From Candidatus Doudnabacteria bacterium (GTDB taxonomy: Bacteria; Patescibacteriota; Doudnabacteria; UBA920): 64,000 nucleotides of DNA. Within the stretch, counting starts at the first letter, position 1. Each line of letters starts with the position of its first letter. Location: contig CAVYGQ010000001.1 in NCBI GenBank assembly GCA_963768175.1, forward strand, positions 190,305 to 254,304, read 5' to 3'. The position numbers and the translations under genes are program-made. The notes under the pieces were generated by a model. That model was not told the DNA's origin. It ran no database searches and saw only the letters and a program-made list of their open reading frames with translations. This document shows, one piece after another, positions 17,652-54,343 of the stretch.

Positions 17652-20444
17652 TTGTCATTCATGTCATTTTTGCTCATTAACCTTATGTCTTTTTTAACAA
17701 ACTTTTTTAGCGGCGACAAAAATCCTTTGGAAAAATATTCCAAACAGCTGGATTTGGTCAATCAATATAAAGATGAAGTTGCGGGGCTCTCCCAAGAAGC
17801 GATGAAAGAAGAGATCGCAAATTTTAGGACGGAAATTGCCAAACTGGAAACTGATAAAGAAATTTTCGCCCGGCTTAAAGAAATCGCGCCGAGGGTTTTT
17901 GCGCTAGTACGAGAAGCCGCGAAAAGATCCATCTCCCAATTCCACTACGACGTTCAGGTAGCCGGCGGTTTTGCGCTGGCTGAGGGAAAAATCGCGGAAA
18001 TGAAGACCGGTGAAGGTAAGACTTTAGCCGCGACTTTGCCACTAGTGCTTTACGCTTTGGCAGGCAAAGGCTCGCATTTAGTTACAGTTAACGACTATTT
18101 GGCCCGTTGGCAGGCCAGCTTAATGGGGCAGATTTATCATTATTTGGGACTTTCTGTTGCTTCCATTCAGCACGAGGCGTCATTTTTATACGATCCCGAA
18201 TATAAACCCGAGCAGGAAGAAATAGATAAGTTGCAAGGTGAAACCCAAGGTTTGGTTTTAGATGTTAAGCACATGCGGCCAATTTCCAGAAGAGAAGCTT
18301 ACGCGGCGGATATTACCTACGGCACCAATAACGAATTCGGTTTTGATTATTTGCGCGATAATATGGTGCAAAACATCAACCAGCTTGTCCAGCGGGATTT
18401 ATTTTACGCGATTGTGGACGAGGTGGACTCAATTCTTATTGATGAAGCGCGCACGCCTTTAATCATCAGCATGCCGGATACCGAGCCGACCAGCCAATAT
18501 TACGATTTTGCCCGCATGGTTGACCGTTTGGAAGAAGAAAAAGATTACACCGTGGATGAAAAGCATAAAGCCGCAAGCTTGACGGACGAAGGCATAAACA
18601 AAATAGAGGCCGTTTTAAAAATTCCGAATATTTACGACACGTCCAAAGGTGTAACCACCATCCACCATATTGAGCAGGCTGTGCGCGCCCGTGGCCTGTT
18701 TAAGAAAGACCGCGATTATGTGGTGCGCGAAGGGGAAATTATTATTGTGGACGAATTCACCGGGCGGTTAATGTTTGGCCGCCGATACAGTGAGGGCTTG
18801 CATCAGGCCATTGAAGCCAAGGAAGGCGTAAAAATCCAGGCAGAAAGCAAGACCTTGGCCACCATCACTTTCCAGAATTTGTTTAGATTGTATAAAAAAC
18901 TTTCCGGTATGACCGGTACGGCCAAAACCGAGGAAGAAGAATTTTTCAAAATTTACCAGCTTACCGTTGAACAAATCCCTACCAACAAGCCGATGATCCG
19001 GGAAGACAGTCCGGATGTGGTTTATAAAACCGAAACCGCCAAGTTTAACGCTATTGCCCGGGAAATAAAAGAGAGGCACAAAAAAGGGCAGCCGATACTA
19101 ATAGGCACAGTAAGCATCGCCAAAAACGAAATGCTGGCCGAGGTGCTAAAAAAAGAGGGCTTGCAGTTTGAACTCTTAAACGCCAAAAACCACGAACGCG
19201 AAGCGCACATTATTTCCCAGGCCGGCCGCTTGGGGCAAATTACCTTGGCAACCAATATTGCCGGGCGCGGCGTAGACATTATTTTGGGCGGCAACCCTCC
19301 GGACCTTGAGGAACAGAAGGCCGTAATCCAGGCCGGAGGACTTCACATTTTGGGCACGGAACGGCACGAATCCCGCCGCATAGACAACCAGTTAAGGGGC
19401 CGCAGTGGGCGCCAGGGCGACCCGGGTTCTTCCCAATTTTTTGTTTCTATGGAAGATGATTTAATGCGCCTGTTCGGCGGCGAACGGATGAAATCGCTAA
19501 TGACGACTTTGGGCTTACCAGATGAACAGCCTATAGAAGCCAAAATGGTTTCGCGCAGTATTGAATCTGCCCAAAAGAAAATAGAAGGCCTAAACTTTGA
19601 TACCAGAAAACACGTTTTGGAATTTGACGACGTTTTAAACCACCAGCGCAACCATATTTACAAAAAGCGACGTGTATATTTAGGAATTGAATCGATTAAG
19701 CAGCTGGAAAAGAAAACCGATGATAACGAAGGTGAATCGGAAGAAATTAAAGACAAACAAATTGACCTTAAAACCGAAATTCTTGGCTTAGTTCGTAACG
19801 AACTTACCGAATTAGTAGAGTTTAATTTAAATGTAGTGGATGAAAACGGCAACGAACAACGAGATTGGAATAATTTGTTTAAAGCGGCAAATACTATAAT
19901 TCCAGTAACGCCGGAGTTGCAAAAAAGGGCCAAAGCGGAATACGAAAACGCCGCGGACCAGGATTTTGCCGTGGCTGACACGTTCTATAAATCCGCCGTG
20001 GATATGTGGGAAGCCAAAGAAAAGGAGCTTGGTAAAGAAATTTTTGAAGGCGCCCAGCGTTTTGTTGCCCTGCAGGCTTTGGATAATTTATGGATGGAGC
20101 ATTTGGATACCATGGACCATTTGCGCGATTCGGTCAGATTACGCGGTTACGGCCAGCGCGACCCGTTGGTGGAGTACAAAAAAGAAGGTTACCAAATGTT
20201 CCAGACTTTGCTAAAAGAAATTAACAAGCAAATTGTTAACAGCATTTTCCATATTTCGGTAAACGTCCAGCCGCAGCAGCAAAATCAGAATTTGCCAAAT
20301 AATATGATAACTAATTTATCCGATGGCTCATCAGCACCAGGCAAATCATCGTCTGACTCCAAGTACGCTAACGTCGGCCGTAACGACCGCTGTCCTTGCG
20401 GCAGCGGAAAAAAATTCAAGAAGTGCCATGGGAAAAACGTATAG
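17652..20444 (+). CDS. secA: preprotein translocase ATPase SecA (true start possibly at the ATG at 17685)
   Basis: Walker A MKTGEGKT, DEAD-like motor, C-terminal zinc finger CPCGSGKKFKKCHG. Confidence 0.95.
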   Translation: MSFMSFLLINLMSFLTNFFSGDKNPLEKYSKQLDLVNQYKDEVAGLSQEAMKEEIANFRTEIAKLETDKEIFARLKEIAPRVFALVREAAKRSISQFHYDVQVAGGFALAEGKIAEMKTGEGKTLAATLPLVLYALAGKGSHLVTVNDYLARWQASLMGQIYHYLGLSVASIQHEASFLYDPEYKPEQEEIDKLQGETQGLVLDVKHMRPISRREAYAADITYGTNNEFGFDYLRDNMVQNINQLVQRDLFYAIVDEVDSILIDEARTPLIISMPDTEPTSQYYDFARMVDRLEEEKDYTVDEKHKAASLTDEGINKIEAVLKIPNIYDTSKGVTTIHHIEQAVRARGLFKKDRDYVVREGEIIIVDEFTGRLMFGRRYSEGLHQAIEAKEGVKIQAESKTLATITFQNLFRLYKKLSGMTGTAKTEEEEFFKIYQLTVEQIPTNKPMIREDSPDVVYKTETAKFNAIAREIKERHKKGQPILIGTVSIAKNEMLAEVLKKEGLQFELLNAKNHEREAHIISQAGRLGQITLATNIAGRGVDIILGGNPPDLEEQKAVIQAGGLHILGTERHESRRIDNQLRGRSGRQGDPGSSQFFVSMEDDLMRLFGGERMKSLMTTLGLPDEQPIEAKMVSRSIESAQKKIEGLNFDTRKHVLEFDDVLNHQRNHIYKKRRVYLGIESIKQLEKKTDDNEGESEEIKDKQIDLKTEILGLVRNELTELVEFNLNVVDENGNEQRDWNNLFKAANTIIPVTPELQKRAKAEYENAADQDFAVADTFYKSAVDMWEAKEKELGKEIFEGAQRFVALQALDNLWMEHLDTMDHLRDSVRLRGYGQRDPLVEYKKEGYQMFQTLLKEINKQIVNSIFHISVNVQPQQQNQNLPNNMITNLSDGSSAPGKSSSDSKYANVGRNDRCPCGSGKKFKKCHGKNV

Positions 20445-50167: not shown

Positions 50168-52402
50168 ATGTTCCAGAACAACATCAGAAATTTCTGCATC
50201 ATCGCTCATATTGACCACGGTAAGTCCACGCTGGCTGACCGGCTTTTGGAAATTACCCACACAGTCAGCAAGCGTGACATGAAGGACCAGCTGCTTGACC
50301 AAATGGATTTGGAACGGGAAAGGGGAATTACAATCAAGCTGCAACCTGTCAGAATGCAATATACGCTGACTAACACGGACAGTAAACGGACTAACGCGGA
50401 AGGCAATTTGTTATACGAGGATTTAACTTACAAGATAAGAGGGGCTGTATTTGAAGTCCGCAGGCAAATCGGCCCGGGCCATAAAGAAAGTGTTTACCAG
50501 AACGCCTTGGCTTTAGAGTTCAAAAAACGAAATATACCTTTTGAAAAGGAAAAACGCATTGATGTCTTGTATTACGATAAAAAAGTCGGCGTTTACCAAC
50601 CAGATTTTTTAATAGATAATAAAGTATTACTGGAAACCAAAGCTTTGTCATTTATTGGAAAGAATGAAGAGAGACAGGTTTGGCATTATTTAAAAGGTAC
50701 TCCATATAAACTCGCTCTATTAGTCAACTTCTCTTCTGCCGGCGCCGATATCAAACGGATTATTAATACTCCGTTACAGTCCATTTCCGAAAAGTCCGTT
50801 CCTAGTCCATCACCGTCAGTGTACACATTGAATTTAATTGATACGCCAGGGCATGTGGACTTTAGTTACGAAGTTTCGCGATCCCTTGCCTGCTGTGAAG
50901 GCGCAATTTTAGTCGTGGACAGCACGCAAGGCATAGAAGCCCAAACCTTGGCCAACGTCCACTTGGCACAGGAGCATAATTTGGTTTTAATCCCGGTGGT
51001 CAATAAAATAGATTTGCCAAACTCCGACCGTAAACAAACCGCGGAAGAACTAAAAACCGTTTTTGGCTTCACGGACAATGAAATACTTTACGCCTCGGGG
51101 AAGACCGGCGAAGGCGTGGAGGATATTTTAAAAGCGGTAATCAAAAAAGTTCCTCCTCCGGTCGGCGACGAACAAAAGCCGTTCCGCGGCCTGATTTTTG
51201 ACTCCATGTACGACATCCACCGCGGCGTGGTAATTTTTGTCCGCTGTTTTGACGGAGAATTAAAAAACCGAGAAAAAGTCTTTACCATCGGCAGCCAAAC
51301 CCAGTTTGAAAGTTTGGAGGTCGGATATTTCCATCCAAAAATGGAAAAGTCCGATGGAATAAAAACCGGCGAAGTCGGCTATATAGTCACCGGTTTGCGC
51401 GACGTCAGCAAGGCCCGCGTGGGCGACACTGTCACGCTGTATGATCGAAAAACCGATGTAAAACAACTGCCCGGCTACAAACACGTAAAGCCGATGGTTT
51501 ATGCCACCATTTTCCCGGTCAGCGGGGATGACTATCCGCTTTTGCGCGATGCCATGAACAAATTAAAGCTTTCCGATGCCGCGCTGGAATTTGAGCCGAT
51601 AAATATTCCTTCCATCGGCTTTGGTTTCCGCACAGGGTTTTTGGGGCTGCTTCATATGGACATTGTACAGGAGCGCCTGACCCGCGAATACAATTTGGAT
51701 TTAATTTTAACCGCGCCTTCGGTGGCTTACCATGTCGTGACAAGCAGCGGAAAAGATTTATACATCCACAACCCGGCGGAGTTTCCCGATCCGTCCATCA
51801 TAAAAGAGCTTTACGAGCCGTGGATGTCCGTAAATATTTTGGTGCCGCAAACTTACATTGGCCCGATTATGGAAATCGCCACCCAGCGCCGCGCCATTTC
51901 CAAAGACATAAAATATTTGGGCAAAAATCGCGTGGAAATGAATTTTGAAATGCCGCTGGCCAATATTATTTCCGATTTTTACGATAAGCTTAAATCCGTG
52001 TCCAGCGGTTATGCCAGTTTGAATTATGATTTAATTGAAGAGCGGGTAGGGGATTTGGTTAAAGTGGATATCTTGGTCGCCGGCGAGCCGGTAGTCGCGC
52101 TGTCGGCAATTATGCACCGTTTTACCGCTACCGCCGAAGGCAAGCAATTAGTGGAAAAACTTAAAACCTTAATTCCCAAACACCAGTTTGAGGTTGCCAT
52201 TCAGGCCGCAATTGGCGGTAAAATAATCGCCCGCGAAACCATCTCCGCCCTGCGCAAAGACGTTACCGGCTACCTTTATGGCGGCGACGTCACCCGCAAA
52301 ATGAAACTTTTAAATAAACAAAAACGCGGCAAAAAACGGATGAAGAGAATAGGTAAGGTGGATATTCCTCAGGAGGCATTCCTTGCTGTACTTAAAAAAT
52401 AA
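50168..52402 (+). CDS. lepA: elongation factor 4 (LepA) carrying an in-frame ~150-aa GxxExxY / PD-(D/E)xK-family domain insertion between switch I and the DTPGH G3 motif
   Basis: [22 protein letters not shown], then insertion ([35 protein letters not shown]...[16 protein letters not shown]...[19 protein letters not shown]), then [24 protein letters not shown] and the complete LepA C-terminus. Confidence 0.85.
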   Translation: [744 protein letters not shown]

Positions 52403-52411
52403 TGTTATAAT

Positions 52412-52654
52412 TTGTTCATGCTAGAAAGTGAATTTCAATATTATAAAGACCACCAAAAGGAACTCGTCGATAAATTTGAAGGTAAGTTTATCGTTATTAA
52501 AGGCGCCAAGGTGATCGGTGTATATGATACAGAAATTGAGGCCTATGAAGAAACCAAAAAAATTGAAGAACTTGGCACTTTTCTTATTCAGCAAGTTTTA
52601 CCGGGAACAGAAAGTTATACCCAAACTTTTCATTCCAGAGTTAGCGTAATATAA
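52412..52654 (+). CDS. small DUF5678-like protein (putative partner of the downstream aspartyl protease)
   Basis: 80 aa, ...KFEGKFIVIKGAKVIGVYDTEIEAYEETKK... pattern; 7-nt gap to the next gene. Confidence 0.4.
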   Translation: MFMLESEFQYYKDHQKELVDKFEGKFIVIKGAKVIGVYDTEIEAYEETKKIEELGTFLIQQVLPGTESYTQTFHSRVSVI

Positions 52655-52661
52655 TAAAATC

Positions 52662-53180
52662 ATGCCGGAAGCGCTTACCTTAAAAGCTAACGGAATTGCT
52701 AGAGTTTTAGTTTCCGAAGTTGGAGTATCAGAACCTTTAGGTAATCTTCAGCCAAATCAAACAATTCAAATAAAAAATTTCAGAGGGATTTGGGACACTG
52801 GGGCCACGGGATGTGTGATAACAAATAAAGTAGTATCGGATCTGGGTCTAAAGCCAATCGGTATGAGAGAAGTACATACCGCAAATGGAAAAGCAAACCA
52901 ACAGACTTACCTTGTTGACATTTATTTACCAAATAAGGTTCGCATTGTAAATTTAACCGTAACTGAGGCCTCGTTGCCTCAAAATACCGACTGCTTAATT
53001 GGAATGGATGTTATTACTTTGGGTGATTTTTGTATTACGAATTTGAATGGAAAAACGGTAATGTCTTTTAGAACTCCTTCTAGTGCCTGCATTGATTTTG
53101 TAGAGGAGTTAAAACTTAACGACCCGAATAGAATGAGCAGGCAGCAAAGAAGAGCGATGTTGAGAAAAAAAGGATTTTAA
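52662..53180 (+). CDS. retropepsin-like (clan AA) aspartyl protease
   Basis: Hydrophobic-hydrophobic-DTGA active-site motif IWDTGATGCVIT; ~170 aa single-lobe size. Confidence 0.6.
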   Translation: MPEALTLKANGIARVLVSEVGVSEPLGNLQPNQTIQIKNFRGIWDTGATGCVITNKVVSDLGLKPIGMREVHTANGKANQQTYLVDIYLPNKVRIVNLTVTEASLPQNTDCLIGMDVITLGDFCITNLNGKTVMSFRTPSSACIDFVEELKLNDPNRMSRQQRRAMLRKKGF

Positions 53181-53206
53181 AAATCGGCAAAAGGCCGATT
53201 TTTTGA
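53179..53206 (+). terminator. rho-independent terminator
   Basis: aaaatcggc-aaaa-ggccgattttttg. Confidence 0.6.
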
Positions 53207-53326
53207 TATTATGCCGAGTGCTTATTCGCACGAATTAGCACTCGAACAAGCAAATACAATCAAAAAGCCCTATTTTCCGCGGCAACTTGATCTCCCGAAA
53301 AAGGTGTATACTATAGGTGGAAAGGG

Positions 53327-53590
53327 GTGAGTTATATGCCCAAGGAAGAGCTTGTGGGAGAAGTCTTCCGATATTACGAAGACAAAGGGACTGCCTGTAT
53401 TAAGCTTTCGGGCAGGCTCGTAGTCGGCCAAACCTTGCACTTTAAGGACCCTAACGGCGATTATTTCCAAACTATCGGCGAAATGGAAGTCGCCAACGAA
53501 ACGGCACGTTTTGCCTACCGTGGTGACTATGTGGGAATCAAAGTCGGGCGAAAGCTGCATGAACACGACCAGGTTTTTGTGCAGGATTAG
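53327..53590 (+). CDS. hypothetical 87-aa protein (beta-barrel-like, EF-Tu domain-2-like pattern)
   Basis: Strong SD aaagggg 8 nt before ATG; GEVFRYYEDKGTACIKLSGRLVVGQTLHF pattern. Confidence 0.5.
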   Translation: MSYMPKEELVGEVFRYYEDKGTACIKLSGRLVVGQTLHFKDPNGDYFQTIGEMEVANETARFAYRGDYVGIKVGRKLHEHDQVFVQD

Positions 53591-53713
53591 ATTTTTCATA
53601 AAAAATGTTTCAATCTAACAAATTGAGATGCGGTTTTTTGGGATATTTTTAAATTTTGATTTTTTAAAAAGATTTTATATAATGATTCCAAGTAAAAATT
53701 AACAAACAAACCT

Positions 53714-54343
53714 ATGCAAAAGAAAGTAATTTTTATGGCAGTTGCCATAACTTTAGTAGCCGCCGGGTGCGGCAAGAAGCAGCCTCCTGCACCGGTCAAT
53801 CCCTTGCAGGGCAATGCCAAGACAAATACCCAGGCAAGCGGACAGCTAATGACATTGAATGATTTATTGGCAGCGGGCAAATCCCAAAAGTGCACAGTCA
53901 GCTACGTAGTTAACAATACACAAAATCAAGGGACAGTCTATATTGACGGAAGCAACGTTCGGATGGATACAACTTACCAGCTTAACGGCGCCGAAAAAAA
54001 CTTCAGCGTAATTAGCAACGGCCAGTATGCATACCTTTGGACTAGCGATTCGACATTGGGATTTAAAGCCCCGGTTCAAAAAACTAGTACCTCTAGCCAA
54101 CCGTTCGGCGCAAGCAAACTGCGCCAAGACTTAGACCCAAACCATCCATACCAATATGACTGTTCCGGCTGGACGGCTGATTCGTCTGAATTCACCCCTC
54201 CTTCTTCCATAAATTTTAGCGACATGGGGAAGCTGCAAAGCCAAACCCCAGTGGCACCGGGTAGTAATGCCCAAGCTTGTGCCGCTTGCAACTACGCAGG
54301 CAGCGGAAAAGCCAAATGTTTGGCCGATTTAGGGTGCAAGTAA
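53714..54343 (+). CDS. lipoprotein of unknown function (Cys-rich C-terminus)
   Basis: Signal peptide + lipobox LVAAGC; C-terminal CAACNYAGSGKAKCLADLGCK. Confidence 0.6.
   Translation: MQKKVIFMAVAITLVAAGCGKKQPPAPVNPLQGNAKTNTQASGQLMTLNDLLAAGKSQKCTVSYVVNNTQNQGTVYIDGSNVRMDTTYQLNGAEKNFSVISNGQYAYLWTSDSTLGFKAPVQKTSTSSQPFGASKLRQDLDPNHPYQYDCSGWTADSSEFTPPSSINFSDMGKLQSQTPVAPGSNAQACAACNYAGSGKAKCLADLGCK

Follow-up and report, generated by a model that had tools for sequence, protein, structure and literature searches.

A mobile gene pair of a DUF5678 protein and a retropepsin-like protease downstream of lepA in Candidatus Doudnabacteria: a possible toxin–antitoxin-like or defence-like cassette

What is a retropepsin-like aspartic protease doing behind the lepA gene of a Candidatus Doudnabacteria bacterium, and does the small protein encoded just upstream of it belong to it? 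The question arises in what we call the window, the whole stretch of 64,000 nucleotides that was analysed (assembly GCA_963768175.1, contig CAVYGQ010000001.1, positions 190,305 to 254,304), in which three plus-strand open reading frames (ORFs) lie downstream of lepA (50168–52402). A sequence-only reading of this DNA had joined the three into one module, made of a DUF5678-like small protein, the protease and a small protein resembling domain 2 of EF-Tu. Our analysis shows that the unit is a two-gene cassette at 52403–53205, self-contained and horizontally mobile, which holds the DUF5678 and protease genes.

Pairing and mobility of the two genes

In a scan of one genome per species, at least 530 loci encode relatives of the protease, and each of the best 80 has a DUF5678 gene as its immediate upstream neighbour, in the same orientation (80/80). 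The spacing between the two genes is mostly -8 to +12 nt, and stop and start codons often overlap. At identities of about 45–55%, the 80 loci come from no fewer than 14 groups of phylum level: Candidate Phyla Radiation (CPR)/Patescibacteria, Chloroflexota, Bacteroidota, Ignavibacteria/Chlorobiota, Pseudomonadota, Desulfobacterota, Verrucomicrobiota, Planctomycetota, Nitrospirota, Nitrospinota, Krumholzibacteriota, Cloacimonadota, Bacillota and Dormiibacterota. The unit also reaches culturable hosts, namely Flavobacteriia (Tenacibaculum adriaticum DSM 18961, Tamlana, Aquimarina) and Variovorax paradoxus. Clustering of all flanking ORFs of the 80 loci yielded no third conserved family, and a Pfam scan of the nearest upstream and downstream genes found no family in more than 3 of about 75. 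The sequence-only reading had taken the stand-alone retropepsin and its short partner ORF for a two-component system and had pointed to neighbourhood conservation as a check; this part of it is well supported, as the pairing is kept at all 80 genome loci and the flanks vary.

The same pairing is found in viruses. A search of IMG/VR that started from the small-protein side gave 39 contigs, two of which end too early for the presence of a protease to be judged. The protease lies directly downstream of the DUF5678 gene on 35 of the 37 assessable contigs, being truncated in one of these pairs (L099) and interrupted in another (L120). On contigs L091 (3977–4243) and L096 (3986–4243) the DUF5678 gene stands alone, with no protease downstream in any frame, and judging from their sequences these solo genes may encode orphan partners or inhibitors that are carried by phages. 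In LE1-like phages of Leptospira the pair is divergent in sequence, has an overlapping ATGA and adjoins the portal gene. The neighbours on viral contigs are a mixture of accessory and structural genes, including DNA methyltransferases, integrases, a HicB-like antitoxin and lysis genes, and the protease has no match in PHROG. A further observation concerns contig L103 (2024–3522), where a tail-less family protease of 148 amino acids (ALWDSGAT), without a DUF5678 gene, overlaps the end of a 353-amino-acid gene that was read as phage tail-fibre-like from sequence alone; a complete DUF5678–protease pair lies about 450 nt downstream.

The history of the site behind lepA can be followed in two close relatives. 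One of them (L125), whose LepA is about 90% identical, has the DUF4012–MurJ–LepA–pair arrangement of the window, followed by methyltransferase genes and without the third gene, which encodes 84 amino acids. In the other (L122) LepA is 92.5% identical across the 483 residues that are available, and lepA is followed by a gap of 427 nt and then by the 84-amino-acid gene, bPH_2 and DivIC; the gap shows no detectable remnant of the pair. Between the window and this second relative, DNA similarity ends with the lepA stop codon and begins again at about 53301. Because L125 carries the pair and L122 only the 84-amino-acid gene, close relatives differ in whether they have the cassette (about 52403–53300) at this site, the third gene being independent of it.

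The two proteins and their flanking signals

The features of the cassette, all on the plus strand, are as follows.

52403–52411, plus strand: extended -10-like box TGTTATAAT, directly after the lepA stop codon (read from the sequence)
52418–52654, plus strand: DUF5678-family small acidic protein of 78 amino acids, the upstream partner (Pfam, homologues, gene callers)
52655–52661, plus strand: intergenic spacer of 7 nt (read from the sequence)
52662–53180, plus strand: retropepsin-like (clan AA) aspartic protease of 172 amino acids, predicted to be cytoplasmic, the proposed effector (hidden Markov model (HMM), motif, AlphaFold2 (AF2)/Foldseek)
52794–52805, plus strand: codons of the catalytic motif D45-T-G-A48 (read from the sequence, and family conservation)
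53106–53177, plus strand: Lys/Arg-rich C-terminal tail of the protease, amino acids 149–172, ...NRMSRQQRRAMLRKKGF (isoelectric point (pI) and homologue alignment)
53179–53205, plus strand: intrinsic-terminator-like hairpin AAAAATCGGC / GCCGATTTTT leading into a T tract, 3' end of the cassette (hairpin search)

The small ORF, listed mechanically as 52412–52654 with a TTG start and 80 amino acids (it includes KFEGKFIVIKGAKVIGVYDTEIEAYEE), begins according to gene callers and to the N-termini of more than 100 homologues at the ATG at 52418 (MLESEF...). With its start so shifted, it is indeed a DUF5678 protein, as the sequence-only reading had suggested: residues 17–59 match Pfam DUF5678 (PF18929) with 28.2 bits against a gathering cut-off of 23.2 (E 1.7e-06). 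It has more than 500 homologues, mostly 60–72% identical to the window copy even between phyla, and a precomputed PF18929 flag stands on about a third of those listed. The C-terminal motif GTFLIQxCxPGxxSYTQTFHSRV is near-invariant. The protein is acidic (pI 4.9 in the window, family median 5.4), and its AF2 model, with a predicted local distance difference test score (pLDDT) of 75, has an alpha-alpha-beta-beta-alpha-beta-beta topology and a terminal segment (residues 74–80, pLDDT below 50) that is predicted to be disordered. Superposed on the BFVD model of a Pandoravirus 'DUF5678 domain-containing protein' (template modelling (TM) score 0.74, root-mean-square deviation 1.9 Å), the predicted structure confirms membership of the DUF5678 family and says nothing on function. 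Several Pandoravirus proteins (BFVD A0A2U7UG46, S4VV29, A0A2U7UD66 and others) have the DUF5678 fold, with TM scores of 0.70–0.75. The beta-beta-alpha-beta-beta order had raised the idea of a ubiquitin-like beta-grasp, by analogy with DDI1; it was rejected, as there is no ubiquitin, ThiS or MoaD in the top 50 listed Foldseek matches, none of which is significant.

The second gene, which begins after the 7-nt gap and encodes the 172-amino-acid clan-AA protein described earlier, exceeds the cut-offs of two Pfam families, Asp_protease_2 (PF13650; 40.2 bits against 24.3) and gag-asp_proteas (36.4 against 28.2), so that both members of the pair lie above curated thresholds, as the HMM check proposed by the sequence-only reading called for. 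Its catalytic aspartate is codon 45 (52794–52796), within IWDTGATGCVIT; the first motif is IWDTGA (amino acids 43–48) and the second LIGMD (amino acids 112–116). W44, D45, G47, A48, G114, M115 and D122 are invariant in an alignment of 30 homologues, T46 and D116 are at least 90% conserved, and a family-specific C-terminal extension follows (GDF.ITN..GKT..SFR.PS...D(F/Y)V). The AF2 model is confident (pLDDT 87). Its best Foldseek match is Rickettsia APRc (PDB 5c9b, E 6.6e-06), followed by the proteases of foamy virus, Rous sarcoma virus, equine infectious anaemia virus and feline immunodeficiency virus and by DDI1, all of them, APRc included, with a probability of 1.00; a profile search of PDB sequences agrees and again includes DDI1 RVP domains. 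Judging from the model, the protein has a retropepsin fold; it is apparently active. It has no hydrophobic segment (maximum Kyte–Doolittle value 1.19 over 19 residues) and no signal peptide or transmembrane segment, and it is predicted to be cytoplasmic. Since it scores below the cut-offs of both NCBIfam TIGR02281 (clan_AA_DTGA; 25.3 bits against 57.95), whose members also carry an N-terminal transmembrane helix, and TIGR03698 (clan_AA_DTGF; 19.7 against 57.35, the motif here being DTGA and not DTGF), it represents a distinct subfamily. The family is large: a library of 1.84 billion cluster representatives holds 1,673 clusters at E<=1e-30 and 3,915 at E<=1e-10.

Retropepsins work as homodimers. 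One family member of 336 amino acids in the representative library (P0244) is a tandem-duplicated protease with two WDTGSS motifs and one terminal SEC-C knuckle; from its sequence it looks like a natural single-chain pseudo-dimer, consistent with dimeric function, although this is a single case and may be an assembly artefact. No DUF5678–protease fusion, which would have pointed to physical contact between the two, occurs among 119 loci or the top 150 representative matches; the N-terminal extensions of the proteases P0330 and P0278 are something other than DUF5678. Eukaryotic DDI1/DDI2 (UBL-HDD-RVP-UBA) likewise combine a cellular retropepsin domain with small accessory binding modules, whereas the small partner here is encoded by a separate gene and lacks ubiquitin-like matches in the listed set mentioned above. 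The single-lobe clan AA fold and the D-T/S-G-A motif are shared with APRc, RimB and Pseudomonas aeruginosa enzymes. APRc is membrane-anchored and the retropepsin-like enzymes of P. aeruginosa are secreted (PMC4140852, PMC12239564), unlike the window protease, which also differs from these bacterial retropepsins in its family-specific extension and in the SEC-C or basic tail that follows. Pseudomonas RimB is a cytoplasmic retropepsin-like enzyme that controls the polyglutamylation of ribosomal protein S6 (RpsF) (PMC11957791); it acts within a tri-partite RimABK complex, whereas the proteases of the window family are paired with DUF5678.

The tail of the protease comes in two types. A SecA-type SEC-C zinc knuckle, CxCxSGxKxKxC[CH], ends 38 of the 80 homologues and most others end in K/R-rich tails. 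The window protease belongs with the latter: its tail (...RQQRRAMLRKKGF) has no cysteines, hence no SEC-C motif (PF02810), and occupies the position that SEC-C takes in many homologues. It is strongly basic, with a pI of 11.8 compared with 5.8 for the core, and the family median for the whole protein is 8.9. The family profile aligns to SecA C-terminal peptides and to YchJ in PDB. SEC-C otherwise terminates SecA and is found in YecA and YchJ; here it is attached to a protease and not to a translocase or chaperone, with a plain Lys/Arg tail in the window copy. The metal-binding domain of SecA is reported to bind SecB and ribosomes (bioRxiv 10.1101/613315), and by sequence either type of tail could dock the protease onto an acidic surface. 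Elsewhere in the window, at about 20355–20435 on the plus strand in the third frame, a SEC-C-type motif matches the tail part of the protease HMM (E 2e-04) and may be the C-terminus of this genome's SecA. Nine to ten of 30 protease homologues also match weakly the PADLOC E2/E1-E2 and PDC-S12 models (best values from 2e-06 to 2.6e-10), probably through the shared zinc knuckle, since their number is near that of the SEC-C-tailed homologues.

The flanking signals are compatible with a unit of its own. The box TGTTATAAT ends 6 nt 5' of the small-gene ATG, and the relative L125 has the same layout (TGGTATAAT, 6 nt, ATG). Because a TGnTATAAT box adjoins the lepA stop codon in both carriers, 6 nt from the ATG, it may be the cassette's own promoter, perhaps for a leaderless or near-leaderless mRNA. 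As a family-wide trait the leaderless signature is weak: extended -10 boxes precede the pair at 14 of 112 loci, compared with 6% in control ORFs (p=0.026), and their position shows no clear peak except for 8 loci at 6 nt. Directly 3' of the protease stop codon, the terminator announced by the sequence-only reading is present as a perfect hairpin of 10 bp (arms 53179–53188 and 53194–53203, each of 10 nt and 100% complementary, around a 5-nt loop) that leads into a T tract. The extended -10 site that it announced next is also present: a TG-extended -10-like sequence at 53184–53212 agrees with 9 of 12 consensus positions, a consensus match only. An Rfam scan of 52000–54000 matched no structured RNA at E<=1.

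A toxin–antitoxin-like or defence-like function and the alternatives

The reading that we favour, with a probability of about 45%, is that of a mobile toxin–antitoxin (TA)-like or abortive-infection/defence-like cassette in which, as far as sequences allow one to judge, the small protein would restrain the protease. The pattern is the one expected of a mobile addiction or defence cassette, because pairing is strict, flanks are variable and close relatives differ in carriage; the overlapping frames, the absence of any other partner, the patchy spread over phyla and phages, the presence or absence at one site and the orphan small genes also point to a selfish or defensive unit. Two features by which TA loci are recognised were found here, namely adjacent, co-directional and closely spaced genes that stay together in genomes (80/80) and viruses (35/37), and a mobile, patchy distribution with variable flanks (at least 14 groups, no recurrent neighbour, phage copies). 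The likeness to type II TA and abortive-infection systems such as Phd–Doc and MazEF extends to the two small co-directional genes with overlapping or nearly abutting frames, to the order (a small acidic protein first, a larger basic enzyme second), to the charge pattern (median pI 5.4 for the small protein compared with 8.9 for the protease), and to the patchy phyla, variable context, presence or absence in close relatives, phage copies and orphan small genes. By analogy, the solo genes on L091 and L096 resemble orphan antitoxins or phage-borne counter-inhibitors. The pair differs from these systems in that its putative toxin is a retropepsin-like protease, a type of which literature searches found no TA or defence family, and in that its small partner has no recognisable DNA-binding fold and is as conserved as the enzyme.

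The mechanism that we propose runs as follows. The two genes would be co-transcribed and translationally coupled, as suggested by the 7-nt spacer here and the overlapping stop and start codons elsewhere. The downstream product would be an active cytoplasmic retropepsin-type protease working as a homodimer, which is what family knowledge and the one tandem-duplicated homologue lead us to expect, and the SEC-C knuckle, or the Lys/Arg tail as here, would dock it onto an acidic surface, for which the ribosome, a SecB-like surface and its own acidic partner are candidates. The 78-amino-acid DUF5678 protein would bind the protease and keep it inactive through its conserved C-terminal hairpin and tail, in which His-Ser-Arg may plug the catalytic Asp dyad as the prosegment lysine of pepsinogen does. 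If the partner were lost, degraded or titrated, be it that the element is lost or that a phage infects or stress sets in, the freed protease, directed by its SEC-C or basic tail, would cut cellular targets, with growth arrest, maintenance of the element or abortive infection as the outcome. Proteases with a co-encoded inhibitor are known: staphopain and staphostatin, pepsinogen and its prosegment, and, in yeast, IA3 with proteinase A. As in these, the small protein is encoded with the protease and is proposed to block the active site; unlike them, it belongs to a mobile two-gene cassette, and it has no sequence or fold similarity to these inhibitors.

Several observations weigh against a restrained toxin, chiefly the lack of a recognisable DNA-binding fold in the small protein and its high conservation. 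Most type II antitoxins have a DNA-binding domain; in the small protein, Pfam and NCBIfam detected no helix–turn–helix, ribbon–helix–helix, AbrB or Phd domain, and Foldseek gave no significant fold match in PDB. A relationship with Phd/YefM-like antitoxins was considered and found no support, as hhalign gave a probability of 0.1 against YefM and the 50 best Foldseek matches listed include no YefM or Phd structure. As a rule antitoxins evolve more quickly than toxins, and over 69 complete pairs the mean pairwise identity is 56% for the whole small protein and 66% for its C-terminal part, compared with 52% for the protease core, which puts the conservation of the small protein level with that of the core or above it. 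The stronger statement that it is far more conserved was abandoned, as it came from the value for the whole protease (43%) and the difference shrank to 56% against 52% on the core. Such conservation would suit a small protein that acts as substrate or effector, or one that also touches some conserved component of the host. No protease match was found in the PLSDB plasmids. Among PADLOC models the protease matches PDC-M08B weakly (E 2e-04 for the window copy, 3e-06 for the best family member) and the small protein matches none, those of PDC-M08 included, so that the two components of this candidate system are not both present. Finally, the pair adjoins housekeeping genes in the window lineage, where it may be a domesticated regulator.

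The two chief points among these leave room for a substrate or effector and for a domesticated regulator. In the first of these alternatives, which we consider unlikely, the DUF5678 protein is a dedicated substrate or pro-protein, cleaved for example within or after YTQTF/HSRV so as to activate it, inactivate it or release a fragment; or else the roles are reversed, the small protein being the effector or toxin and the protease neutralising it in the way of type VII-like enzymatic antitoxins. Retropepsins characteristically process defined sites in partner polyproteins, and the conservation of the small protein, at least equal to that of the enzyme core, peaks in an exposed C-terminal segment whose end is predicted to be disordered, as would suit a protease-accessible tail; strict co-occurrence, for its part, suits a dedicated substrate as well as an inhibitor. 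However, neither a transporter nor a modification enzyme nor any other gene goes along with the pair, which makes a secreted peptide product unlikely. As to the reversal of roles, the antitoxin gene more commonly precedes the toxin gene, the order that a small acidic protein followed by a larger basic enzyme would follow, and a toxic small protein would turn its orphan copies on viral contigs into a hazard.

The housekeeping setting in the window recalls another possibility, that of a domesticated regulator of translation or secretion whose tail recruits the protease to ribosomes or to Sec/SecB, there to trim a protein that is ribosomal or nascent; the small protein would serve it as adaptor or regulator, and RimB would be its analogue. 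The action of RimB, likewise a bacterial retropepsin-like enzyme, on a protein of the ribosome (PMC11957791), the SecB and ribosome binding reported (bioRxiv 10.1101/613315) for the SecA-type domain that 38 of 80 homologues carry (most others having K/R tails), and the position of the pair directly after lepA (EF4) in the window and in L125, and before the TypA/BipA GTPase gene in L011, all speak for it. Yet the neighbourhoods are otherwise unrelated, with a translational GTPase next to the pair at only one of the 80 loci (L011). L122, despite its 92.5% identical LepA, lacks the pair, and a patchy distribution that includes phages is unlike that of a core housekeeping function. We regard this role as improbable. 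The phage copies themselves could mean that the pair is a phage gene pair for virion protein processing, superinfection exclusion or anti-defence, the chromosomal copies being prophage remnants: the small gene is on 39 IMG/VR contigs and both genes on 35, LE1-like Leptospira phages have the pair beside the portal gene, the solo protease of L103 follows the gene read as tail-fibre-like from sequence alone, and Pandoraviruses have DUF5678 proteins. We consider this very unlikely, given that its position in viral contigs varies among mostly accessory neighbours, that housekeeping neighbours without phage genes surround it in the window and in most of the 80 loci, and that the protease has no PHROG match.

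The TA-like or defence-like cassette thus stays our preferred reading. Its most far-reaching form, to which we would give rather little credence, is a very widespread and so far unrecognised class of mobile TA or abortive-infection modules, of which this pair would be the founding example, with a retropepsin as toxin, delivery to ribosome or SecB-like surfaces by a SEC-C or basic tail, a DUF5678 protein as pseudo-substrate inhibitor and a phage-borne solo countermeasure.

Neighbouring features and the meaning of the pair

The third ORF is an unrelated and independent neighbour behind the terminator.

53336–53590, plus strand: third gene, 84 amino acids, with the ATG start given by gene callers and homologues, not the GTG at 53327

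It had been described as an 87-amino-acid protein starting at that GTG and as EF-Tu-domain-2-like; neither description survives, the match to PF03144 (EF-Tu domain 2) reaching 13.3 bits, below the cut-off of 30.3. Its best match, Peptidase_U32_C (PF16325), is also below threshold (19.2 against 28.2 bits), and the weak similarity covers only the C-terminal domain of TrhP, a beta-barrel in U32 peptidases/TrhP. There is no sequence match in PDB, and only 3 homologues were retrieved (65–100% identity). The gene belongs to a conserved block with the bPH_2 and DivIC genes. A phmmer search with its product against the ORFs of the 80 loci gave no match, and the three-gene module has to be given up, since no homologue lies beside the pair in any of the 80 loci and the two close relatives carry the pair (L125) and the 84-amino-acid gene (L122) separately.

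Between the terminator and this gene lies a palindrome (53215–53244) with 14-nt arms, CGAGTGCTTATTCG / CGAATTAGCACTCG, and the core ATTCGCACGAAT. No second one of its kind occurs in the window, in which chance alone would be expected to give none, and two similar ATTCGTACGAAT palindromes are found 5' of the orthologous gene in L122; judging from its position it may be an operator for the 84-amino-acid gene. On the other side of the cassette, the LepA of the window has an in-frame insert of about 137 amino acids in its GTPase domain (about amino acids 82–218, nt ~50411–50821), and this insert makes up an entire domain of the PD-(D/E)XK nuclease superfamily (Pfam PDDEXK_3, E 3e-32). The LepA of L125 (about 90% identical, 608 amino acids) is without it, and the insert may be a mobile insertion domain in an essential translation GTPase.

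In conclusion, two 'hypothetical' annotations become a defined, strictly coupled and mobile unit that ranges from tiny CPR genomes to culturable hosts and phages. To our knowledge the cytoplasmic retropepsin-like proteases of bacteria have barely been studied, and we found no paper on the pair, on a retropepsin-based TA or defence system, on the function of DUF5678 or on PDC-M08. The families themselves are known (DUF5678 and Asp_protease_2); the finding is that a mobile module of two genes uses an enzyme class without precedent and carries an unusual, putative targeting tail. If the pair is a dedicated processing pair, it would be a new small-protein maturation system. If instead the protease is a restrained toxin, as we favour, it would bring a new catalytic class to TA and defence biology; its partner would be a natural inhibitor of retropepsins that is itself a protein, and the SEC-C domain would have gained a further use. 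On the most far-reaching reading given above, retropepsins would also circulate among bacteria and phages as selfish cassettes, with relatives of their partner in giant viruses, which would bear on the origin of retroviral and DDI1-type proteases.

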